Origin: a virus
DNA: 34,732 bases
IMG/VR virus record: IMGVR_UViG_3300028840_006925
Span: 1-34,732 of that record
Strand: one strand, 5' to 3'
A model generated the notes under the pieces. It was not told where the DNA came from, did no database searches, and worked only from the letters and a program-made list of their open reading frames with translations. The position numbers and the translations under genes were made by a program. This document shows positions 3,215-34,732 of this stretch, in pieces (the stretch's first letter is position 1; every line of letters starts with the position of its first letter).

Positions 3215-3766
3215 TTAGAACATAAATCCATAAGTTGACGTGATTGCTGCTACTTCTAAAACTCTCCATTTTTGATTAGCATAATATGGAAAAATAAAAT
3301 GAGGAATTAGAAGATCAATTTGAATATATTTATTTATTCCTATCATTCCACCAAAGAAAAATTTGGGAGAAATTAAATGTTCTTTTCTACAAACCATATC
3401 TCCTTTAACGGAAAATAAATTTTTCTTGTATGTATGAATATAAGAAAAGCTACATCCTATTCCAGCATATATTTCTTTTTTATATGTTTTTGAAAAGTAA
3501 TTCAAATAATCTATTGATATTTGATATAGATATCTAGGATAACTTTTAAAAGAAACATCTAAACCATGAATATTATTTATCAATCTATATCCAAATCCAA
3601 GAGTGGGGTAAGGAATTGGATATCCTGCGCTAAAATCTAAATGAACAATATGATTTACTTTTGTATGATTTTTTTGTCTTTTTTCAGATTCTTTAGCAAG
3701 AACATTTATCGAAGGACTAGCAAATAAAAATGATGTACATATAAATAAAAATAATAATTTTTTCAT
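3215..3766 (-). CDS. Small outer-membrane beta-barrel protein (OmpX/Lom/PF13505-like) with a signal peptide; an accessory 'moron' gene
   Basis: The N-terminus MKKLLFLFICTSFLFASPSINVLA looks like a signal peptide. Alternating aromatic and glycine strands are present (GFGYRL, YAGIGCSFSY, FFFGGMIG), and the C-terminus ends ...TYGFMF with a terminal Phe. The RBS is AGGAGA and the gene has its own promoter. Confidence 0.6.
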   Translation of the reverse strand: MKKLLFLFICTSFLFASPSINVLAKESEKRQKNHTKVNHIVHLDFSAGYPIPYPTLGFGYRLINNIHGLDVSFKSYPRYLYQISIDYLNYFSKTYKKEIYAGIGCSFSYIHTYKKNLFSVKGDMVCRKEHLISPKFFFGGMIGINKYIQIDLLIPHFIFPYYANQKWRVLEVAAITSTYGFMF

Positions 3767-23950: not shown

Positions 23951-24532
23951 ATGAAAGTTGGATATGCAAGGGTCAGTTCTAAAGATCAAAATCTAGATAG
24001 ACAATTAAAAATTTTAAAAGAACATGGAGTTGAAGAAAAAAATATTTTTAAAGAAAAATATAGCGGCGCAACAAAAGAAAGGCCAGAATTTGACAAAATG
24101 TTAAACTTTCTTAGAAAGAATGATATTTTATATATTACAAGTCTCGATAGACTTTCCAGATCTCATGTTGATTTAATTAATACAATTAAATTTTTTGAAG
24201 AAAATAATATTTTTCTTAAATCTATAGAAGAAAATATTGATTTTTCTACTAATGTAGGACAATTGATGTTGCAAGTATTTGCTGCTATTCATGAATTTCA
24301 TAGAAAAACAATGAAAGAAAATCAAAAAATGGGATATATAGCGGCTAAATCAAGAGGGAAAAGATTTGGTCAACCCAGAAAATTATCTCTCTACCAAGCA
24401 AGAATAATCTATGAAACAATAAAAAAAGAAAACGTTCCAATATATAAAATAGCTAAAGAATTTAAAGTATCAAGACCTACAATTTATAAAGCTATAAAAG
24501 AATTCAAAGAAATAGAAAATATAAGAGATTAA
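23951..24532 (+). CDS. Small serine recombinase (resolvase/invertase family) with a C-terminal HTH
   Basis: MKVGYARVSSKDQNLDRQ...ILYITSLDRLSRS... carries the catalytic Ser in YARVSS. The length (193 aa) and the C-terminal IAKEFKVSRPTIYKAI HTH match the Hin/Gin/Tn3 resolvase architecture. Confidence 0.9.
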   Translation: MKVGYARVSSKDQNLDRQLKILKEHGVEEKNIFKEKYSGATKERPEFDKMLNFLRKNDILYITSLDRLSRSHVDLINTIKFFEENNIFLKSIEENIDFSTNVGQLMLQVFAAIHEFHRKTMKENQKMGYIAAKSRGKRFGQPRKLSLYQARIIYETIKKENVPIYKIAKEFKVSRPTIYKAIKEFKEIENIRD

Positions 24533-24550: not shown

Positions 24551-24796
24551 TTATTTTCTTATTCCTCTTCTTGCAGCAGCTGAAAGACCTGCAAATTTTT
24601 TAGGTCCATATTTTCTTCTTCCTATCCATGCAGCTAATGCTCCTGGAGATTTTGCCCCTTTCTTTTTTAATGCTGTTTCTAAAGCTCCAAATCTTTTTCC
24701 TGTACCAAGTTTTGGTTTTTTTCCAACAGCTACATATGATTTTCCCGGTCTTTTTCTTGCTTTTGGTCCACTTCTTTTTACATATTTGAATGCCAT
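24551..24796 (-). CDS. Extremely basic small protein (81 aa)
   Basis: The K/R/G-rich motif GTGKRFGALETALKKKGAKSPGALAAWIGRRKYGPKKF resembles a small conserved phage and bacterial family of unknown function. The RBS is AAGGAGAAAAAATG. Confidence 0.6.
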   Translation of the reverse strand: MAFKYVKRSGPKARKRPGKSYVAVGKKPKLGTGKRFGALETALKKKGAKSPGALAAWIGRRKYGPKKFAGLSAAARRGIRK

Positions 24797-24809
24797 TTTT
24801 TCTCCTTAT

Positions 24810-24899
24810 TTAACAAGTTATATTATACTTAATAGTGGTAAATATAATAATTGTAATAAAAATAATAGTAATTATTGTAAGAACTAAAATATATTTCAT
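24810..24899 (-). CDS. Possible 29-aa single-pass membrane peptide (MKYILVLTIITIIFITIIIFTTIKYNITC)
   Basis: I read this by eye in a 128-bp gap. There is no convincing RBS, and AT-rich DNA easily generates I/T/F runs by chance. Confidence 0.15.
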   Translation of the reverse strand: MKYILVLTIITIIFITIIIFTTIKYNITC

Positions 24900-24924
24900 T
24901 GGATTATTATAAGATTCTAAATAA

Positions 24925-25113
24925 TTATTTTCTTCTTGATCTTTTAAGTTTTCTAGCTTCTGATAACGCAATTGCAATTGCCTGTTTTTTAGATTTTACT
25001 ACAGGACCTTTTTTAGATCCTGATTTAAGCTTTCCTTCTTTGAATTCTTCCATAACCTTTTTTACTTTTTGAGGCCTTTTTAATTTTGTTTTTAAAGGGC
25101 ATCTTCTTAACAT
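24925..25113 (-). CDS. Small basic protein resembling the DUF6496 family
   Basis: KVKKVMEEFKEGKLKSGSKKGPVVKSKKQAIAIALSEARK matches my recollection of the ...EFK.GKL.SG....V.S.KQAIAI.LSEAR... motif. The RBS AGAGGA precedes the ATG at 25113. Confidence 0.55.
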   Translation of the reverse strand: MLRRCPLKTKLKRPQKVKKVMEEFKEGKLKSGSKKGPVVKSKKQAIAIALSEARKLKRSRRK

Positions 25114-25249
25114 TTTTTCCTCTTTTTGCTTTTAATTGTTTTTTAGATGTTTGAATAAGGTCTTTGTCTTCTTCTATTTCATGTTTATAGCCTTTTATAT
25201 CGCCTTTTAAATGCTTAGTTATTTTACCTATAAAACTTTTCATTTTCAT
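25025..25249 (-). CDS. Small K-rich basic protein (74 aa from the ATG at 25249). Its 3' end overlaps the next gene by 89 nt in another frame.
   Basis: The RBS AAGGAAG precedes ATGAAAATGAAA at 25249. The track start at 25318 would lie upstream of, and read through, the terminator hairpin. Confidence 0.45.
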   Translation of the reverse strand: MKMKSFIGKITKHLKGDIKGYKHEIEEDKDLIQTSKKQLKAKRGKNVKKMPFKNKIKKASKSKKGYGRIQRRKA

Positions 25250-25260
25250 ATATTCTTCCT

Positions 25261-25292
25261 TAATTAAAATAAGCCTCTTATCAAAAGAGGCT
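25261..25292 (-). terminator. Minus-strand intrinsic terminator inside the head module
   Basis: On the minus strand: AGCCUCUU, loop UUGAU, AAGAGGCU (25272-25292), followed by UAUUUUAAUUA. The stop codon of the 54-aa ORF sits in the loop. Confidence 0.55.
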
Positions 25293-25445
25293 ATTAGCTT
25301 CTTTAGATAATAGATCATTAGTTTCTATTATTTTTTGTTCTATCTTTGTTGTATCTTTTTTATTATTTTTTTTCGAGTTTTTAAGATGAGGAATATTTTT
25401 TTTTGCAATAGAAAAAGCTTTTCCTCTTGGCCTCGGCATTGCCAT
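25281..25445 (-). CDS. Small basic protein (54 aa, MAMPRPRGKAFSIAKKNIPHLKNSKKNNKKDTTKIEQKIIETNDLLSKEANSLF)
   Basis: This is my own translation, because the ORF is below the track cutoff. The RBS AAGAGG lies 9 nt upstream. The start lies 2 nt after the previous stop, and the ORF ends in the terminator loop. Confidence 0.4.
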   Translation of the reverse strand: MAMPRPRGKAFSIAKKNIPHLKNSKKNNKKDTTKIEQKIIETNDLLSKEANSLF

Positions 25446-25447
25446 TA

Positions 25448-25678
25448 TTAATACCTCTTACCTTTTGACATTTGTTCTCTAAATTTACGAGAACTTTCTT
25501 TTGATCTTTCATCAAATTCTTCAAATGTACTAGGATATTCATAATTTGGATCTTCCATAGTTGAGGCATACATTTTATGAATTACTTCTTGAGGAAGATT
25601 TGCAGGTGCAGAACGATCCTCTGAAATCATTCCTTCATAACTACCTGCTCTTTTTCTATATTCTTCTTTTACAATCAT
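25448..25678 (-). CDS. Hypothetical small protein (76 aa) downstream of the portal gene
   Basis: The ORF has the RBS AAGGAGAAAAAAA. Confidence 0.6.
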   Translation of the reverse strand: MIVKEEYRKRAGSYEGMISEDRSAPANLPQEVIHKMYASTMEDPNYEYPSTFEEFDERSKESSRKFREQMSKGKRY

Positions 25679-27745: not shown

Positions 27746-27866
27746 TTTTTACCTTTTAATTTATTTTTATTACGTTTTTGTTTTATTAATGTATATATAT
27801 AAAATGATAAGATTACATATATAATTGATATAGAAGTTACAAAGATTGTTTTATCATTAGTTGAAA

Positions 27867-28103
27867 CTAATTTGTCTTTTTCTTTTTTGATTTGCAAGGG
27901 TGTCTTCTTGACATTGTCATTTTTCCTTTTTTTTTCCGCCGTTCTATACGTTCAATTCTATCTTTTTTTCGTTGTTTCATCTCTATTCTAGCCTGCTTTT
28001 TTTTTTGTCGTAAAAAATTCCAAAAATCACAGAAAGGATTAGCTTCTAAACAAGAGCAAGAAAGAAAAATAAATATAATAAATGAATATATAAGTTTTTT
28101 CAT
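27867..28103 (-). CDS. Secreted or lipoprotein-like K/R-rich miniprotein (78 aa from the ATG at 28103) between the terminase and portal genes
   Basis: MKKLIYSFIIFIFLSCSCLEANP looks like a signal sequence with Cys. It is followed by QKKKQARIEMKQRKKDRIERIERRKKKGK. The RBS AGGAGA overlaps the TAG stop of terL. Confidence 0.55.
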   Translation of the reverse strand: MKKLIYSFIIFIFLSCSCLEANPFCDFWNFLRQKKKQARIEMKQRKKDRIERIERRKKKGKMTMSRRHPCKSKKKKTN

Positions 28104-28113
28104 AATATTTCTC

Positions 28114-29457
28114 CTATGTTTGAAAAAAAGAAGGAAAATTTGATTGATTGCCATGATATGCTTCTAAATAATTTTTTTCTATTTCTTCAGGTGTCATTCC
28201 ACCTTCCAATTTATTTATTGATATTGCCAAATATCTAAAAGAATCAGAAAAATTAGAAGCCCAGTTATGAAGAGGATAAGGCTTATATATTTTTCTTCTA
28301 CTATCATATTCTTGCCTATAATTTTCTAAAGCATTTATAAATTTATCACATTTTTTTTCATCAATCCAAAGCTTTGAAAATAGGGACCTACATGCTTCTA
28401 TTCCATCCATAATACTAAAATTATCGGAAACTTTAAATTTAATTCCAAGTTGTCTAGCTTTTTCAAAGCGTGTAATGCCAGTTCCCCATTCTTTTACTTT
28501 AATATCATGTGGAGCAATGTGGGTCCCATAAATATAAGGCTTTCTTGATAGAACTTTAACATAGTATTCAATGCCTTCTTTGCTATCTTCAAAACAATCT
28601 ATGATTCTTATTGTTTTGCCTATATATTGAAAAAATAAAATAGCTGTAGAATCTCTAACTCCTAAATCCCAACTTGTATGAACTTTAAAAGAACTTTCCC
28701 AAGGAACATCGCCTATTCTATTTTGAAGTCTTAATTCATTTAAATATTTTGAATAATAAGATCCTTCAATTCCCATTTCAAATGAAGTATAATATTCTTG
28801 TTGAACAAGATCATAAGACATTTCTTTGTCTTTAAGTTCTCTTTCAATTTCTTCTAAAGGAATATGTTTTGTATCTTCAATTGTAAGTTTATAAGAAAAC
28901 CATTCTTTTGATTTAATTGCTATTTGATATAAATCCCAAAGATGATTTTTTCCTCTTGGAGTTGATATAAAAAGAGCCCAGCCGCCATTAGCTGTTAAAA
29001 TTGGTTTTAAATATTGCCATGCATTAGGATCTTGCAAAGCATATTCTGAAAAAACACATCCGATTGGATTTGTTCCCATTAAAGTATCATAATTATCAGA
29101 ACCAATAAGTTGAAATAAAGATCCATTTGTAAATCTGATCTTCATCTCATGATAATTTTTCTTTTTTATCAAATCTTCTGGAAAATAATCTAAAATCCTT
29201 CTTCCTTCATTATCTAATGCATCCCAGATTACTTTTTTTGCTTGGGAATAAGTTGGAAAGATATAAAAATAAACTCCTGGTTCTTGAACCATTTTTTTTA
29301 TTACATAATTAAGAGCTGTTATATCTTTACCGCTTCTTCTAGGAAGAATTGCAAGAACTCTTTTAAATTTACTGTCTAAAGCTTTTAATATTGGAAGTTG
29401 ATAATTTCTAGGATGAAAATCAATTTTCTGATTTTCTTTTTTGCTCATTTGCTTCAT
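28114..29457 (-). CDS. terL: Terminase large subunit
   Basis: A Walker A-like motif (ILPRRSGKD), a Walker B-like motif (GCVFSEYA) and the coupling motif ISTPRGKNHLW are present. The C-terminal nuclease-like acidic motifs include TSWDLGVRDSTAI and IAPHD. The protein is 447 aa. Confidence 0.85.
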   Translation of the reverse strand: MKQMSKKENQKIDFHPRNYQLPILKALDSKFKRVLAILPRRSGKDITALNYVIKKMVQEPGVYFYIFPTYSQAKKVIWDALDNEGRRILDYFPEDLIKKKNYHEMKIRFTNGSLFQLIGSDNYDTLMGTNPIGCVFSEYALQDPNAWQYLKPILTANGGWALFISTPRGKNHLWDLYQIAIKSKEWFSYKLTIEDTKHIPLEEIERELKDKEMSYDLVQQEYYTSFEMGIEGSYYSKYLNELRLQNRIGDVPWESSFKVHTSWDLGVRDSTAILFFQYIGKTIRIIDCFEDSKEGIEYYVKVLSRKPYIYGTHIAPHDIKVKEWGTGITRFEKARQLGIKFKVSDNFSIMDGIEACRSLFSKLWIDEKKCDKFINALENYRQEYDSRRKIYKPYPLHNWASNFSDSFRYLAISINKLEGGMTPEEIEKNYLEAYHGNQSNFPSFFQT

Positions 29458-31417: not shown

Positions 31418-31851
31418 GATTTATTATCTTTAAGTTTAAGATATTTTGGTAAAAATTCATTGCTTATTTCTATCAAAAATTTTAGAAAATTATCTTCATT
31501 TTCTTTTTCTAGTTTTTTTACTCTAACATACTCGATATCATTTTGAAAAATACTTTCTAAAAGATTTAACATTTTTAAAATATTTAAATTTTCTCTTACC
31601 TTTTCTTCTTTAAATGGAAAAATCCTAGAAATATCTGATGGTATAAAAGAAATAAATGTTTTTCCAAATAAAAAAACTAAAGAATATATAACTTTTCCAA
31701 TAAAAGGAACTTCTTCTAAAGAAAGAAGATAATCTTTTTCTCTTAAAACCTTGATGATAAGATTAAATGTGTTTCTTTTTTGAAACATCATTCTTATTTT
31801 TATAATCGAAAATTCTGTAAAATCAGGAAAGTTTCCGTTCATTTTTTTCAA
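31414..31851 (-). CDS. Hypothetical protein (145 aa). The start is uncertain: TTG at 31851 or ATG at 31842.
   Basis: The ORF has no clear RBS at either candidate start. Confidence 0.5.
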   Translation of the reverse strand: MKKMNGNFPDFTEFSIIKIRMMFQKRNTFNLIIKVLREKDYLLSLEEVPFIGKVIYSLVFLFGKTFISFIPSDISRIFPFKEEKVRENLNILKMLNLLESIFQNDIEYVRVKKLEKENEDNFLKFLIEISNEFLPKYLKLKDNKS

Positions 31852-32141
31852 TTAATATATGGTCGAAATTTTTTAGGATGTGCATATCTCTTTTTTCTTT
31901 CTCTTGGTTTTCTAAGAAAGGGAACTTCATCATTCTCTGCCATTTTCTTAGCCTTTTCATTTCCATATTTTTTCATATCTTTCTTTATTTCTTCTCTCAT
32001 TTTTCTTATCTCATGATCAGTTGGAGGGTGCATATGAATATTTCCAAACATCATTTTCGAAAAAACAAAAAGATTTATCACTACAATTACTATTCCAGAT
32101 ATGGATAAAAAAAATACTGTTATCTTACTTTCGTTTTTCAT
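31848..32141 (-). CDS. Signal-anchored K/E-rich miniprotein (97 aa)
   Basis: The N-terminal transmembrane segment ITVFFLSISGIVIVVINLFVF is followed by a charged tail (EIRKMREEIKKDMKKYGNEKAKKMAEN...RERKKRY). The start overlaps the upstream stop (ATGA). Confidence 0.6.
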   Translation of the reverse strand: MKNESKITVFFLSISGIVIVVINLFVFSKMMFGNIHMHPPTDHEIRKMREEIKKDMKKYGNEKAKKMAENDEVPFLRKPRERKKRYAHPKKFRPYIN

Positions 32142-32356
32142 TTGCTATCTTTTGAACGATTTTGTACAGCTTCCCAAAATTTTTCTTCATTTATAAGGAC
32201 TCTTCGCCCTATTGATAAAAAAGCTTTGGAAAAACCATTAATATTAGAATTAGCACGGAGTGCCCAAATAGTTGGTTCACTTCCTGGCCAAATGCCAACT
32301 TCTTTATTTTTCTTTGCAAAATTTTTAACAGTAAAAAATTTGGGATTATTACCCAT
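32138..32356 (-). CDS. Excisionase/AlpA-like (HTH_17-type) small DNA-binding protein
   Basis: FFTVKNFAKKNKEVGIWPGSEPTIWALRAN...GRRVLINEEKFWEAV resembles MerR-like excisionase-family HTH proteins. Confidence 0.45.
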   Translation of the reverse strand: MGNNPKFFTVKNFAKKNKEVGIWPGSEPTIWALRANSNINGFSKAFLSIGRRVLINEEKFWEAVQNRSKDSK

Positions 32357-32582
32357 AGGATTTTTTTTTCTTACTTTTTTCTTGCTGTTTTTTACATGTT
32401 TTTAGTTGTTCTTTTCGTTTTTTCTCTTTTTTTATATATTCTTTGTATTCTAGTCTTACTTTTTCGTCATATTCTTTATGTTTCTGTTTTTCTTTTTCAT
32501 ATTTCTTTTTTTCTTTTTCAAATGTTGTAGAAAAAGATGATAGAATAAAAAAAATAATTATATAAAATAATCCTATTTTCAT
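32349..32582 (-). CDS. Signal-anchored hyper-charged K/E miniprotein, copy B (MKIGLFY family)
   Basis: MKIGLFYIIIFFILSSFSTTF is followed by EKEKKKYEKEKQKHKEYDEK... The protein is a paralogue of the 33037-33258 product, and DNA identity extends into the upstream aaaaaacgATGAAAATAGG. Confidence 0.65.
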   Translation of the reverse strand: MKIGLFYIIIFFILSSFSTTFEKEKKKYEKEKQKHKEYDEKVRLEYKEYIKKEKKRKEQLKTCKKQQEKSKKKKSYG

Positions 32583-32614
32583 CGTTTTTTCTTCTTATTT
32601 ATTTTCTTGTGTAA

Positions 32615-32851
32615 CTATTCATAATCAAAGTCATATCCTTGTTTATATCTTTCATATCTTTTTTGTTTTTCTATTTCTTCTTCTTTTTCTTCTTCTTTCT
32701 GTTTAATACGTCTTTCTTTGTCTTTTCTGCATTCCATTATCATTCTTTCCATTCTTTCTTTTTCTATACGATCATCATCACTATCATCAATAGGATATTC
32801 ACAACTACGTATATTAAAAAGAATTACTGCGCATAACAATATTTTTATCAT
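32615..32851 (-). CDS. Secreted or lipoprotein-like charged miniprotein (78 aa)
   Basis: MIKILLCAVILFNIRSC is followed by an acidic and basic tail. Its signal-coding DNA shares the 13-mer ctgcgcataacaa with 33476-33488. The stop is TAG. Confidence 0.6.
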   Translation of the reverse strand: MIKILLCAVILFNIRSCEYPIDDSDDDRIEKERMERMIMECRKDKERRIKQKEEEKEEEIEKQKRYERYKQGYDFDYE

Positions 32852-33034
32852 TTATTCTATTGCTGTTTCTTGTCTTCTTCTTGCTCTTTCATCTATGAAT
32901 TTTCTATATTCTTCTCTTTCTATTCTTTGTCTTTTTACTTCCGGATCTTCTTCTTCATTTGATTCATCATTCCTAGAAATACTAAAACCGGTCAAATAAA
33001 CAAAAGACATTACATAAAATATTATTTTCTTCAT
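32852..33034 (-). CDS. Secreted charged miniprotein (60 aa)
   Basis: MKKIIFYVMSFVYLTGFSIS is followed by RNDESNEEEDPEVKRQRIEREEYRKFIDERARRRQE. Its stop abuts the next ATG. Confidence 0.55.
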   Translation of the reverse strand: MKKIIFYVMSFVYLTGFSISRNDESNEEEDPEVKRQRIEREEYRKFIDERARRRQETAIE

Positions 33035-33036
33035 TT

Positions 33037-33258
33037 TTATTTTTTCTTCTTATTTGTTTTTTTCTTACTTTTTTCTTGCTGTTTTTTATATATTTTTAAT
33101 TGTTCTTTTCGTTTTTTTGCTTCTTTTTTATGTTCTTTATATTCTTTTTCTATTTTTTCTATATATTTTTTATGTTCTTTCTCTTGTTCTTTTTCAAATA
33201 TTGTAACAAAAGATGAGAAAATAAAAAAAATAATTATGTAAAATAATCCTATTTTCAT
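33037..33258 (-). CDS. Signal-anchored hyper-charged K/E miniprotein, copy A (MKIGLFY family)
   Basis: MKIGLFYIIIFFIFSSFVTIF is followed by EKEQEKEHKKYIEKIEKEYKEHKKEAKKRKEQLK... The start overlaps the stop of the interrupted upstream ORF (ATGA). Confidence 0.65.
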   Translation of the reverse strand: MKIGLFYIIIFFIFSSFVTIFEKEQEKEHKKYIEKIEKEYKEHKKEAKKRKEQLKIYKKQQEKSKKKTNKKKK

Positions 33259-33509
33259 CGTTTTTTCTTATTCTTTGTTTTTTTCTTATTTTTTTCTTTG
33301 TGTTTTTTATGTTTTTTTATTTCTTTTTTCTTCTTTTTTATTTCTTTTTGTTTCTTTTTTGTTTCTTTTTTAAGATTCTTACATTCCTTTTCTATTTTTT
33401 CCAAATGTGTTTTTTCTTTGCTCGCTCTTTCTTTATTACATCCCTAATTGAAAGATGGTAAAGCAAAAAAAAATGCTGCGCATAACAAAAATTTTAAAAT
33501 GTTATTCAT
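33255..33509 (-). pseudogene. Paralogue of the 32615-32851 gene interrupted by a single in-frame TAG: MNNILKFLLCAAFFFALPSFN*GCNKERASKEKTHLEKIEKECKNLKKETKKKQKEIKKKKKEIKKHKKHKEKNKKKTKNKKKR
   Basis: This is my own translation. The ATG at 33509 overlaps the upstream TGA (ATGA). The TAG is at 33444-33446. The frame then stays open for 62 codons to the TGA that overlaps the next ATG. The track shows no ORF here. Confidence 0.5.
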
Positions 33510-33808
33510 TTTTCCCTCTTTATTTTTTCTTCTCTTTCTTTTTCATTTTGTATAGCTTCCCTCAAAAAATGTTCAGCTAATTTAAGATAAAAACCTTTTT
33601 CTTTTTTTAAATTTTTAGCAATAACTCTTGCATCATCAAGCAAATCACATATAAAAAAATATGTTATTTTTTCTAAATTCTCTAAATTTTCTTCAAAGGT
33701 ATTATTATTTTTACTAAATTCCATTAATTTAAAATGCTGTACAAGATAGAGCATGATGGCATTTGCTGGATGAATAGTCTGAAGAAAATCTTGAATATTA
33801 TTTTTCAT
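33506..33808 (-). CDS. Hypothetical early protein (100 aa)
   Basis: The first 35 nt of the ORF lie in copy A of the 115-bp tandem repeat. Confidence 0.6.
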   Translation of the reverse strand: MKNNIQDFLQTIHPANAIMLYLVQHFKLMEFSKNNNTFEENLENLEKITYFFICDLLDDARVIAKNLKKEKGFYLKLAEHFLREAIQNEKEREEKIKREK

Positions 33809-34003
33809 TTATTTTCATTTTTAAAATTTTTTCAATCATATTATTTGATAATCTATAAATTTTTCTCAAGAAATATATTGAACTCGCTATAGTCTTAAGA
33901 AAATCTTGAATATTATTTTTCATTTATTTTCATTTTTAAAATTTTTTCAATCATATCATCTGATAATCCATAAATTTTTCTCAAGAAATTTATTAAACTC
34001 TCT
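33774..34003. repeat. Tandem direct duplication, 2 x 115 bp, 7 mismatches by my count (33774-33888 and 33889-34003), spanning the rep stop and the next gene's start
   Basis: I aligned the two copies by eye: atagtct[g/t]aagaaaatcttgaatattatttttcatttattttcatttttaaaattttttcaatcata... Both copies retain the ATG and the TAA. Confidence 0.85.
33798..33923 (-). CDS. Chimeric 41-aa ORF created by the duplication (MKNNIQDFLKTIASSIYFLRKIYRLSNNMIEKILKMKINEK)
   Basis: The N-terminus equals the first 9 aa of the 100-aa gene. The C-terminus is a near copy of the Rep C-terminus (..INFLRKIYGLSDDMIEKILKMKINEK). It has the same overlapping-start geometry as the parental junction. Confidence 0.3.
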   Translation of the reverse strand: MKNNIQDFLKTIASSIYFLRKIYRLSNNMIEKILKMKINEK

Positions 34004-34732
34004 ACTGTGAATTTATATCTTGTTCCTGTTTTTGCATTAACAAAACATCCATTTTCTATCTTAAGATATCCTTGATTGTGATAATACGGCGAATTGGCTT
34101 GAAGCATCCAATTTTCATACTCTTTATGTTTTTCAAAAACTATCTTTTGATCTTCCTCTTTTTTCTTTTTTATTTCTACTTGTCTTTCTTTTTTTTCCTT
34201 TGTTTTTTTTAGCCAATTTAAAAGAGTTTTGTAATCATTATTTCTTGTAACTGCATTTTCATATTTCCAGCGAGAAAGATTTTCAGCTTCTTCATATGTC
34301 ATATCTTTCCCAAAAGTAGAAATCAATTTGTCGAGATCTTTTTGTGTCATCTCAACATTTTCTGCGATTACAACTTTGATTGGTTTTAATTTTTCTTTTT
34401 TCTTTTTTGAAGAAGAAAAAACTTTATATTGAGCACCGCCAGGTGCGAGAGCTGCGTTAGCAGCGACTTCTTCAGAAGATTCTACTTTCTTTTCTTTTTT
34501 ATATATTTTTTCTTTTCTATATATATCTTCTTTATTCTTATCTGGTATAGGTTTCCCGATATCGGGAAATCGATTTGACGAAATCGGGATGTGTTGAATA
34601 TCAGTAACTTGCGTTTTGTTGCTTTTATGTGGGGATTTCCCCAAATGATGAGAATCAAGGACTTGCGACTTATTTTGTTTTGGATAAGAATCTTTTGGAA
34701 GAAAGTTCTCTTCATTAGCAAACGCATACCAA
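33913..34732 (-). CDS. Replication initiator, 3' part. The frame is open to the window end. The track ORF 33913-34644 begins at an internal TTG.
   Basis: The ORF track protein ...GKSPHKSNKTQVTDIQH... is identical to the end of the minus-strand frame read from 491 to 1. The stop TAA is at 33913-33915. Confidence 0.75.
   Translation of the reverse strand, partial: WYAFANEENFLPKDSYPKQNKSQVLDSHHLGKSPHKSNKTQVTDIQHIPISSNRFPDIGKPIPDKNKEDIYRKEKIYKKEKKVESSEEVAANAALAPGGAQYKVFSSSKKKKEKLKPIKVVIAENVEMTQKDLDKLISTFGKDMTYEEAENLSRWKYENAVTRNNDYKTLLNWLKKTKEKKERQVEIKKKKEEDQKIVFEKHKEYENWMLQANSPYYHNQGYLKIENGCFVNAKTGTRYKFTVESLINFLRKIYGLSDDMIEKILKMKINEK
34552..34589. promoter_or_regulatory. Cluster of nested dyad symmetries inside the rep coding sequence; candidate origin or iteron-like element
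   Basis: There is an 18-bp perfect palindrome tttcccgatatcgggaaa (34552-34569) and an overlapping 10-bp palindrome aaatcgattt (34567-34576). A third atcggga / gaaatcg copy lies at 34580-34589. The cluster is locally GC-rich and encodes the inter-domain linker ..NRFPDIGKPIPD.. Confidence 0.4.
34589..34732. repeat. Terminal redundancy, right copy of 1-144
   Basis: Same 144-nt string as the window start. The unique genome length is 34588 bp. Confidence 0.9.

Follow-up and report, generated by a model that had tools for sequence, protein, structure and literature searches.

An array of very small K/E-rich proteins with hydrophobic N-termini, including a pair of paralogs, in a variable early-region slot of a phage genome

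Two-component spanins such as Rz/Rz1 combine an i-spanin, which has an N-terminal transmembrane domain (TMD) and a coiled-coil domain in the periplasm (N-in, C-out), with an o-spanin. The o-spanin gene is nested in the i-spanin gene, overlaps it or follows it closely, and is found within or near the lysis genes. Exclusion of superinfecting phages is the task of another group of small proteins, for which we take T4 Imm/Sp, HK97 gp15, phi80/N15 Cor, T5 Llp and the plasmid protein EexN to be the appropriate comparison set; to our knowledge, in no member of that set does a K/E/R helix of 50 residues make up the entire ectodomain or endodomain. ER/K single alpha-helices (SAH) are long, uninterrupted E/K/R helices that are monomeric and have dense i to i+4 salt bridges. 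In phi29, p1 is counted together with p16.7 as a functional counterpart of a membrane tether. The C-terminal part of p16.7 is a folded DNA-binding domain, and its partner, TP, is known (PMC4974454). As a lipoprotein of the outer membrane, the o-spanin carries a lipobox of the form [LVI][ASTVI][GAS]C or one of its documented variants (Kongari et al. 2018, PMC6139136), and the spanin literature (Cahill et al. 2017, PMC5295617; Kongari et al. 2018, PMC6139136) includes a proposal that duplication of the pair is an evolutionary route.

Here, we have analysed a stretch of viral DNA of 34,732 nucleotides (the window), whose genome is that of a circular 34.6-kb phage with a P22-type portal. A sequence-only reading had drawn attention to a set of minus-strand ORFs coding for small, highly charged proteins, and all of the ORFs that it named are present where it placed them. 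They are listed here with the other features of interest:

33255-33509, minus strand: Cps, a disrupted Cys-type gene with an in-frame TAG at 33444-33446
33037-33258, minus strand: K73, MKIGLFY-type, 73 aa
32852-33034, minus strand: T60, with a signal-peptide-like N-terminus, 60 aa
32615-32851, minus strand: C78, the intact Cys-type gene, 78 aa
32349-32582, minus strand: K77, the K73 paralog, 77 aa
32138-32356, minus strand: hth72, without a hydrophobic segment, 72 aa
31848-32141, minus strand: m97, TM segment and basic tail, 97 aa
27867-28103, minus strand: m78, isolated in the gap between terL and the portal gene, 78 aa
33057-33401, minus strand: copy A of the probable duplicated segment, the 3' part of Cps and K73
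32363-32727, minus strand: copy B, the 3' part of C78, a 32-nt spacer and K77
33476-33488, minus strand: the 13-mer TTGTTATGCGCAG (coding for LLCA) in the Cps signal region; second copy at 32827-32839 in C78

That a hydrophobic N-terminus followed by a charged tail is a distinct architecture was borne out by a six-frame scan of the whole window for ORFs that combine a hydrophobic N-terminus with a tail in which K/E/R/D account for at least 45% of residues; only five ORFs were found, all of them among those flagged. The description of six consecutive, translationally coupled ORFs of one architecture is wrong on two points. The run is interrupted by hth72, which sits between K77 and m97, overlaps them by 8 and 4 nt, respectively, and is outside the charged-miniprotein family. 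Among the ORFs of the block, hth72 alone has homologs in related phages (52% identity in L102 and 47% in L054), and it had no Pfam or PDB match. Starts and stops in the block mostly overlap or abut, as in the case of the K73 start, which overlaps the Cps stop (ATGA), but C78 and K77 are 32 nt apart and are thus not coupled. No internal terminator was found within the block.

Such ORFs could be non-functional or barely functional, namely fast-evolving, purine-rich and slippage-prone filler made up of proto-genes or decaying duplicates without meaningful selection. They are ORFans in every search and are missing from the closest relatives, one copy carries a premature TAG, the tails are made of short tandem repeats, a further recent duplication lies next to the block, and the genome has the lowest GC of its clade. 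The dN/dS of the K73/K77 pair is ~0.5 (9 synonymous and 26 non-synonymous differences) and not significantly below 1. The cassette ORFs lack Shine-Dalgarno (SD) sites, with the exception of Cps (SD-like GAGG), most late genes having AGGAG-type sites; the isolated m78 has a strong AGGAG site.

The composition of the frames argues against filler. The called frames are the long stop-free ones, with G enriched at codon position 1 (a periodicity also seen in T60) and C depleted at position 3. In nucleotide shuffles of the tails, 6-9% of codons were stops, so that by our own arithmetic the ~55 stop-free codons per ORF, which are unexpected from composition, have P ~0.02 per ORF. Compared with nucleotide shuffles, the tails are rich in K/E/R and poor in N/G/P/S/T, and, although the sequence is A-rich, asparagine accounts for 2.6% of residues in these ORFs vs 6.7-8.2% elsewhere. 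In K77, K73 and C78, helix breakers are significantly depleted (14, 17 and 1 of 1000 shuffles, respectively; 0.02 vs 0.18 expected in C78), but the tail of the disrupted copy Cps showed neither this depletion nor G1 codon periodicity. Moreover, the architecture occurs nowhere else in the six frames, the indels are in frame, starts and stops tile precisely, and ENA gene callers picked up every intact ORF, Cps being uncalled. The cassette ORFs look like real genes, and we infer that they are expressed; filler seems an unlikely account of them. They are likewise more than an artefact of poly-A/T bias, the alternative that the sequence-only reading had itself named.

The same reading had proposed a segmental duplication of a two-gene cassette. 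The part that concerns the MKIGLFY-type genes stands: K73 and K77 are 87% identical in DNA and 70% in protein (similarity z = 13.8), differ by indels in multiples of 3 and are, judged by their sequences, true paralogs, for which an origin by local duplication is supported. The two-gene units A and B align as colinear and strongly diverged (a 366-nt HSP at 73.5% and, in the signal region, a 39-nt HSP at 79%; a core of ~245 nt within the duplicated segment is 82-87% identical), and the two-gene unit is very probably also a product of local duplication. Matches to TTGTTATGCGCAG in the window are confined to the two Cys-type signal regions, with 0.03 expected by chance. The proposal is less secure for the Cys proteins, as Cps and C78 are weakly alike (BLASTP E = 0.26; block-shuffle z = 5.5). 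Slippage repeats of 12, 21, 33 and 42 nt are found in the tails. The further recent duplication next to the block lies at 33774-34003.

The stop-free segments of Cps are 33542-33447 and 33443-33258. Its head of 21 codons is signal-like (MNNILKFLLCAAFFFALPSFN), and the 62 codons past the TAG code for a K-rich tail of net charge +23; Cps is probably a pseudogene. An assembly error at the TAG was rejected, as an independent assembly (L001) has the same TAG. Recoding of TAG was rejected as well: C78 itself ends at a functional TAG, and table 11 leaves the long genes intact.

Topology was called by simple rules, namely hydrophobic length, flank and tail charge, and the positive-inside rule. The hydrophobic lengths fall into two groups, of 19-22 vs 11-17 residues. 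K73 has an uncharged N-terminal anchor of 19 residues and a 52-aa K/E tail of net charge +13, with a 3-4 hydrophobic stripe read by eye. The K77 tail is also +13; the flank charges are +4 (K77) and 0 (K73) on the C-terminal side and +1 on the N-terminal side, and by the positive-inside rule both tails should be cytoplasmic. In m97, a TM segment of 22 residues leads into a basic tail (net +11) of less biased composition; m97 showed no significant similarity to the other cassette members. In T60, an acidic cluster and an R/E-rich tail (net -3) come after a signal-peptide-like N-terminus (MKKIIFYVMSFVYLTGFSIS) that may be cleaved at SIS|RND, and C78 has an 11-residue hydrophobic core, IRS|C, an acidic linker and a 48-residue helix (net -5). 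These acidic tails should be exported. A lipobox was sought with a PROSITE PS51257-type rule that calls for K/R in the first 7 residues, an uncharged h-region and the motif [LIVMFWSTAG](2)-[LIVMFYSTAGCQ]-[AGS]-C with the Cys at position 15-35. Only m78 matches it (FLSC, Cys16; also Cys18), and this protein, the tail of which is very basic (net +18), is predicted to be a lipoprotein; C78 (IRSC, Arg at -2), Cps (N-stop-GC), T60, K73, K77 and m97 do not match.

No described family had been recognised from the sequence alone, and our searches agree. Against Pfam, PHROGs, NCBIfam and PADLOC, all members gave only sub-threshold matches to TM-plus-charged stretches of unrelated proteins; the PDB held no match to a described family among the cassette ORFs, and Foldseek with two AF2 models (K77 and C78) found no match in BFVD. 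No homolog was detected for K77 in a 5.8-billion word-indexed set, for the K-type profile in 1.84 billion representative proteins, for the K-type profile or C78 in IMG/VR, for K77, C78 and m97 in 50,697 phage records (tblastn), or for the cassette in metagenome contigs, and blastn of the region gave no match. Closer to home, all members were compared by blastp with each ORF in 112 portal-anchored related loci, and no family member turned up; a scan for the architecture upstream of RusA in 56 loci found none, and single-protein scans of IMG/VR with RusA and Rep found no relative. Since no relative or database has a homolog, purifying selection across genomes is not demonstrable. Conservation in related genomes, on which the sequence-only reading had staked its finding, is not seen, the cassette being missing from 112 of 112 related loci and from all databases searched; as the frames are not mere poly-A/T artefacts, that finding is downgraded rather than dismissed.

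The cassette occupies a slot between the replication gene and the DUF551 gene p76, which is followed by RusA. The order of DUF551 and then RusA resembles lambdoid nin regions. In relatives, 0-3 small ORFs separate the replication gene from RusA, and in two loci with the same Rep type (L013 and L014) this very slot is filled by five unrelated tandem membrane-protein paralogs. The cassette is missing from the closest relative (81% portal identity). The terL-portal gap is also variable among relatives, and in the same closest relative it is 26 nt long and lacks m78.

We tentatively propose, as possible rather than probable, that the block is an accessory module with fast turnover, specific to this lineage and made up of envelope-directed miniproteins; it would sit in the nin-like region and perhaps serve superinfection exclusion. 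It would be an ORFan paralog array of very small envelope-targeted proteins in a hypervariable slot, which would have arisen by local duplication of a ~0.5 kb unit (a Cys-type and an MKIGLFY-type gene) followed by lengthening of the tails through in-frame slippage of 12-42-nt repeats, one duplicated copy already decaying. K73, K77 and perhaps m97 would be uncleaved single-pass anchors (N-out/C-in) that hold a ~50-residue polycationic helix (+13) on the cytoplasmic face, and C78 and T60, with their short cleavable-looking signals and acidic clusters, would be exported to the periplasm as acidic single helices. The ORFs would be transcribed with the early and middle genes, and the products would most likely act on the host envelope while the phage infects the cell, be it to exclude superinfecting phages or to take over the membrane. 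They would be dispensable, fast-evolving cargo and stand outside the lysis machinery.

An envelope-directed function is a reasonable hypothesis. Exclusion is perhaps its form, chosen by general likeness to small phage membrane proteins and lipoproteins rather than by a specific signal: exclusion proteins are also very small (60-100 aa), have an N-terminal anchor, signal or lipobox, and are dispensable, poorly conserved cargo in variable slots, expressed outside the late structural operon. Unlike them, the cassette has no significant match in this group (best E = 0.008-0.02, short of curated cut-offs). The best scores came from the 95-aa ORF at 27867-28154 that contains m78, against phrog_1119 Cor (E = 0.0084, 17.5 bits, sub-threshold), and from C78 against EexN (E = 0.02, 14.7 bits vs a cut-off of 33), and in each case the signal region accounts for the match.

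Provided that the proteins are made and active, they would show function reduced to a membrane anchor with one charged helix, and how a variable slot can gain new phage genes by duplication and in-frame slippage. The system would be easy to test, since peptides of this length can be synthesised. The cassette could bear on envelope handling by an unstudied phage clade without recognisable lysis genes. As it stands, the cassette is unconserved phage dark matter, of value mainly as a documented ORFan family.

An alternative is that the K-type proteins are membrane tethers for phage DNA replication, in which the polycationic helix would bind replicating DNA or replication proteins electrostatically. 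The block lies directly downstream of the replication initiator in the same direction of transcription, and the +13 tails, predicted to be cytoplasmic, form a long and seemingly rigid helix, with a 3-4 hydrophobic stripe in K73. There is a precedent in phi29 p16.7, which is made early, resides in the membrane as an integral protein and recruits TP-DNA and ssDNA to it (PMC4974454). Like the cassette, p16.7 comes from an early gene near replication genes and has an N-terminal TM segment, a helical coiled-coil and a proposed DNA-to-membrane role. Unlike p16.7, the cassette proteins offer a polycationic helix only, with no evident folded DNA-binding domain and no homology to such proteins, and belong to a different replication system. 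The genes are absent from relatives, whether these share the Rep type or have another, and are therefore not core replication factors, and the exported acidic C78 and T60 would be left unexplained. We consider a tether improbable.

Finally, the cassette might serve lysis, with the K-type proteins as holin- or antiholin-like proteins (small, one TMD, basic cytoplasmic C-tail) or the pair as a miniature spanin-like device. The whole genome lacks a recognisable endolysin, holin or spanin, and paired paralogs recall holin/antiholin pairs. Holin genes adjoin an endolysin gene or belong to the late lysis cassette, and their products make lethal lesions in the membrane. K73 and K77 do resemble holins in having one hydrophobic segment and a basic +13 tail, a trait that is not holin-specific, but they have no endolysin neighbour, and no muralytic enzyme was detected nearby or genome-wide. 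Several relatives carry, right after the tail-fibre gene, the unannotated A6 family (TM, K/E helix and a Pro-rich tail with DPFWHYYD), which the window lacks at that position, and the five best window matches of the A6 profile are exactly the cassette proteins. A6 is of the same clade and has the same overall architecture and a similar size (77-131 aa). It differs in locus, and its conserved N-terminus MKKLxEGAxxVTA and C-terminal motif are lacking in the cassette. The profile similarity is compositional: in hmmsearch, C78 scored 15.6 bits against A6, with block shuffles reaching 14.0 at the 99th percentile and 19.2 at maximum. C78 as a relocated A6 homolog, suggested by an initial E of 1.3e-5 in a small database, was rejected when the signal was lost under a larger profile, shuffles and hhalign (probability 8.8%).

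The spanin comparison, which the sequence-only reading had drawn loosely, did not hold up. Like Rz/Rz1, the cassette has an adjacent pair of an N-terminally anchored charged helical protein and a small exported Cys protein. K73 and K77 have a TMD (19 uncharged residues) ahead of their +13 tails. The PHROG Rz-like spanins gave sub-threshold matches (E = 0.002-0.09), the best being K73 (E = 0.0019) and K77 (E = 0.094), which align the TM segment and the charged stretch. Unlike spanins, however, C78 and Cps have no lipobox, the Cys gene is upstream of the anchored gene in both units, the reverse of i-spanin followed by o-spanin, and the cassette lacks a proline-rich region and any family match or homology. 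The proteins are about half as long as typical spanins. Their tails are too short, and since the +13 tails are expected to be cytoplasmic, the K-type proteins would not span the periplasm and are probably in the wrong compartment for such a complex. The block sits in the early nin-like region, away from any muralytic enzyme or other lysis neighbour. It falls outside the spanin criteria of Kongari et al. 2018 (PMC6139136). We give a lysis function little credence, and a pair of a TM protein and a Cys protein should not be read as a spanin by default.

It is a long shot that the array is an undescribed device of oppositely charged single-helix miniproteins, with polycationic anchors inside and acidic helices outside the inner membrane, growing by heptad-length slippage and serving, for example, a new superinfection exclusion, membrane tethering of replicating DNA, or non-canonical lysis in a clade without recognisable endolysin, holin or spanin. 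The clade may infect poorly studied low-GC diderm hosts; relatives were repeatedly binned with Chlamydiae and Babeliales MAGs.

As in SAH, the cassette tails are 55-67% K/E/R with few helix breakers and are modelled by AF2 as uninterrupted helices of 48-73 residues. In these models, K77 is one continuous helix (residues 3-75, pLDDT 95) and C78 is helix 2-15, coil 16-25 and helix 26-73, as may be expected of AF2, which returns helices for almost any K/E-rich sequence. Unlike SAH, the tails are not balanced in charge but carry a large net charge (+13 or -5), show a heptad stripe, if a weak one, and continue from a membrane anchor. The frequency of i,i+3/i+4 salt bridges was 0.46 in K77 vs 0.36 +/- 0.06 in residue shuffles, and the excess was marginal and confined to K77 and m97.

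The small minus-strand ORFs at 31848-33509 are best read as an accessory module of envelope-directed miniproteins, specific to this lineage and subject to fast turnover. Every ORF named in the sequence-only reading is present at the stated coordinates:

Small ORFs of the cassette, and the related isolated ORF
33255-33509, minus strand: Cps, Cys type, 84 codons with an in-frame TAG at 33444-33446
33037-33258, minus strand: K73, 73 aa, MKIGLFY type (K-type)
32852-33034, minus strand: T60, 60 aa, third type
32615-32851, minus strand: C78, 78 aa, intact Cys type
32349-32582, minus strand: K77, 77 aa, MKIGLFY type (K-type)
31848-32141, minus strand: m97, 97 aa, related ORF
27867-28103, minus strand: m78, 78 aa, isolated ORF

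That reading also held that six of these are consecutive, share one architecture and are translationally coupled. The run is in fact broken by a 72-aa ORF without a hydrophobic segment (32138-32356), which splits K77 from m97 and overlaps them by 8 nt and 4 nt, respectively. C78 and K77, 32 nt apart, are not coupled; the other junctions overlap or abut, in agreement with that reading. The 72-aa ORF (minus strand) is the sole one in the block with homologs in related phages (L102:76-381, 52%; L054:2341-2595, 47%). To the eye, its C-terminal half (…FLSIGRRVLINEEKFWEAV) suggests an HTH of excisionase or MerR type, for which Pfam and PDB gave no match.

Duplication of a two-gene unit, a Cys-type gene followed by a K-type gene, has good support where the K-type gene is concerned and is plausible for the unit as a whole. 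K73 and K77 show 87% DNA and 70% protein identity, with indels in multiples of three; the DNA identity reaches ~25-45 nt upstream of the ATG. Between them are 9 synonymous and 26 non-synonymous differences, giving a dN/dS of ~0.5 that is not significantly below 1. The Cys-type genes are far more diverged than the K-type pair (BLASTP E = 0.26; block-shuffle Smith-Waterman z = 5.5). That the whole unit was copied is suggested, together with the K73/K77 identity, by the GC-containing signal-coding 13-mer TTGTTATGCGCAG, which matches the window only in the two Cys-type signal regions (0.03 expected), and by sensitive blastn of the two units, which gave two colinear matches, one of 39 nt at 79% in the signal region and one of 366 nt at 73.5% that runs from the middle of the tail across the K-type gene. 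Cps further resembles K73 (z = 7.2), with EKIEKE[YC]K in common, and the N-terminus of T60 resembles m78 (z = 4.3), while m97 resembles none of the others significantly. Judged by these alignments, the members look like one rapidly diverging family, m97 excepted. The tails hold in-frame tandem repeats with periods of 12, 21, 33 and 42 nt, which indicates that they grew by slippage, often in heptad units. Since a separate 115-nt tandem duplication adjoins the block just upstream (33774-34003; 2.0 copies, 93-94% identity), the region is actively rearranging. This repeat takes in the replication gene's 3' end and the beginning of the following ORF (MKNNIQDFL...), creates an extra 41-aa ORF (33798-33923), and is also present in an independent assembly.

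Because the minus strand is strongly purine-rich at the block (AT skew -0.30, GC skew -0.29), we tested directly whether composition could explain these frames. Scanning the entire window in six frames yielded just five ORFs with both a hydrophobic N-terminal window and at least 45% K/E/R/D in the tail, and all are flagged ones. The long stop-free frame in the block is always the called frame, the other two being broken. As nucleotide-shuffled tails contain stops at 6-9% of codons, ~55 open codons are unlikely to arise by chance (by our own arithmetic, P ~0.02 per ORF). K77, K73, C78 and T60 share with the portal and terL genes an enrichment of G at codon position 1 and a depletion of C at position 3. 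Residues that break helices (N, G, P, S, T) are rarer than in shuffled sequences (attained in 14, 17 and 1 per 1000 for K77, K73 and C78, respectively), and asparagine makes up 2.6% of the cassette versus 6.7-8.2% elsewhere, despite the A-richness. The Cps tail has neither codon periodicity nor helix-breaker depletion; it fits a decaying pseudogene, and its TAG is identical in an independent assembly. A weak point is that no Shine-Dalgarno site was found at the cassette ORFs from Cps to m97, except at Cps (GAGG); most other early genes likewise have none, most late genes have AGGAG or AAGGA, and the isolated m78 has AGGAG. It is on the whole unlikely that the cassette consists of non-functional proto-genes or decaying duplicates: the state of Cps is consistent with such an origin, and the codon periodicity and helix-breaker depletion of K77, K73 and C78 speak against it.

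In line with the sequence-only reading, which recognised no described family in the cassette, no family model matches its members above threshold. Matches below threshold fall on TM-plus-charged stretches of unrelated proteins (MotB/ZorB, FtsL-like, SohB, Rz-like spanins). Homologs of the K-type were found neither in a word-indexed set of 5.8 billion proteins, nor by exhaustive profile search of 1.84 billion representatives, nor in IMG/VR or metagenome contigs; relatives of C78 were absent from IMG/VR, and those of K77, C78 and m97 from 50,697 phage records. Conservation in related genomes, which the earlier reading took as its own yardstick, was not observed: among 112 related loci anchored on the portal gene, no ORF matches a cassette member, and RusA was found in 56. 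The closest available relative (81% portal identity) lacks m78, since its terL-portal gap is only 26 nt. Evolutionary support for the cassette is internal only, coming from its paralogs.

The genomic setting points to cargo. The window, of ~28% GC, assembles as a circle with a unit length of 34,588 bp, its first 144 nt (1-144) recurring at 34589-34732; this end overlap makes the genome circular or terminally redundant. Its products include a P22-type portal (PF16510, E = 1e-76), large terminase, major head protein, beta-helix tailspikes, ERF, YqaJ and RusA. The portal is only ~24% identical to those of cultured phages, and relatives with a portal identity of ~70% number in the thousands in public metagenomes, where their contigs measure 30-37 kb. 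Almost all genes lie on the minus strand. They begin with the replication gene, which crosses the contig junction and encodes ~388 aa, not 243 aa as listed. A 100-aa ORF and the flagged block follow, then ORFs of 145, 76 (DUF551, borderline) and 92 aa, RusA, a 143-aa ORF, a 153-aa ORF directly upstream of terL (by position terS; it has no family match), terL, m78, the portal gene and the structural genes. The block lies between the replication gene and RusA, and therefore takes the position of the lambdoid nin region, not that of a lysis cassette. In relatives, 0-3 small ORFs separate these two genes; in the window, 11 ORFs fill the 3.1 kb. In L013 and L014, whose replication protein is of the window's type (33% identity), the exact slot of the cassette is taken by five tandem paralogous membrane proteins of 121-143 aa (L013:4576-6682), directly downstream of the replication gene and with no sequence relation to the cassette. 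Because of this variable slot and these arrays, we regard the cassette as cargo in a position that repeatedly gathers duplicated membrane proteins. The terL-portal gap is a variable cargo site too, ranging from -4 to 3,856 nt (median 235) in 57 related loci. Some relatives have HNH-like, methyltransferase-like or small membrane ORFs there; in the window (27746-28113) the gap holds m78, a predicted lipoprotein.

How the products may be targeted is suggested by their hydrophobic lengths and charges. A PROSITE-type lipobox rule is passed by m78 alone (FLSC, Cys16) and failed by C78 (IRSC) and Cps (N-stop-GC). C78 and T60 have short uncharged cores of 11 and 17 residues, each with a (-3,-1) site and an acidic cluster directly after it, and tails of net charge -5 and -3; these features are consistent with signals that are cleaved and with acidic tails that are exported. 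The uncharged stretch is 19 residues long in K73 and K77, whose tails are net +13, and 22 in m97, whose tail is net +11; by the positive-inside rule, and not from a predictor, such polycationic tails should stay cytoplasmic (N-out/C-in). The AF2 model of K77 is a single helix (residues 3-75, pLDDT 95), and that of C78 a signal helix joined through a 10-residue coil to a helix of 48 residues (pLDDT 79). The tails resemble ER/K single helices in composition, but their i to i+3/i+4 salt bridges are only marginally above shuffles. K73 has a weak 3-4 hydrophobic stripe, as read from its sequence.

The loose likeness to two-component spanins that had been drawn fails on every point testable by published criteria (Kongari et al. 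2018, PMC6139136). The Cys proteins lack a lipobox, the gene order is reversed, the block is outside a lysis-cassette context, the proteins are about half the usual length, and there is no homology. The predicted compartment of the K-type tails would not suit a complex that spans the periplasm, either. Classing the cassette with spanins would be unwarranted, and its mode of action is probably different.

Membrane targeting or export, dispensability, duplication with decay, and location in cargo slots are hallmarks of exclusion and moron genes. As the cassette products are predicted to be membrane-targeted or exported, and are dispensable in relatives, duplicated and decaying, and encoded in cargo slots, we tentatively favour an envelope-directed accessory role, e.g. 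superinfection exclusion or membrane takeover. The sole sequence hints to exclusion are sub-threshold matches of a 95-aa ORF containing m78 (27867-28154) to Cor and of C78 to EexN. The cassette would be transcribed together with the early and middle genes; no terminator was found on the coding strand within the scanned region. For all its attractive features (helices of opposite charge, duplication, slippage), it belongs to a familiar sort of locus, a phage accessory slot with small ORFan membrane proteins. Of the sequence-only reading, the observation is confirmed in part and the interpretation is supported in part. An improbable alternative is that the products tether replicating DNA to the membrane, comparably to phi29 p16.7 (PMC4974454); anchored polycationic tails would be suited to this. 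A lysis role is about as improbable. Two facts lend it some interest: Pfam and PHROGs reveal an endolysin, holin or spanin in none of the window's ORFs, and downstream of the tail-fibre gene relatives have a conserved family that joins a TM segment and K/E helix to a Pro-rich tail. The likeness of that family to C78 proved compositional.

The clade is perhaps likewise without a recognised lysis system. The relatives' family itself, unannotated and of 77-131 aa, lies directly after the tail-fibre gene (L007:2286-2543, L067:1817-2089, L064:2347-2580, L053:1987-2262, L044:2333-2728, L040:692-1009) and combines an MKKLxEGAxxVTA… TM segment and K/E-rich helix with a DPFWHYYD / proline-rich C-terminus. 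The protein database contains 23 members, and the window lacks the family at the corresponding position; a function in lysis or at the envelope is a candidate role for it.

The late operon ends with a 183-aa ORF (3215-3766, minus strand) that is preceded by a strong AGGAG site; the N-terminus of its product resembles a signal peptide (…INVLA|KE), and the C-terminus reads …YGFMF. The product has the look of a small outer-membrane beta-barrel moron, from which a diderm host would follow; Pfam, PHROG, NCBIfam and PADLOC gave no match to it. Six of the 32 MAG-binned relatives (L004, L008, L011, L018, L029, L032) fall in Chlamydiae (Simkaniaceae, Parachlamydia, Chlamydiia) or Babeliales bins, the others being spread over implausible taxa, archaea included; these bins may hint at low-GC intracellular bacterial hosts or reflect composition-driven mis-binning only. 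Midway through the late region, but on the other strand (23951-24532, plus strand), is the gene of an HTH-containing serine recombinase (resolvase/invertase; PF00239, E = 1e-39); a quick scan for inverted repeats on its flanks found none that convinced. Just downstream of the portal gene is a run of very small, extremely basic ORFs (24551-25678, minus strand; e.g. the 81-aa MAFKYVKRSGPKARKRPGKSY…), which may encode internal or DNA-binding virion proteins.
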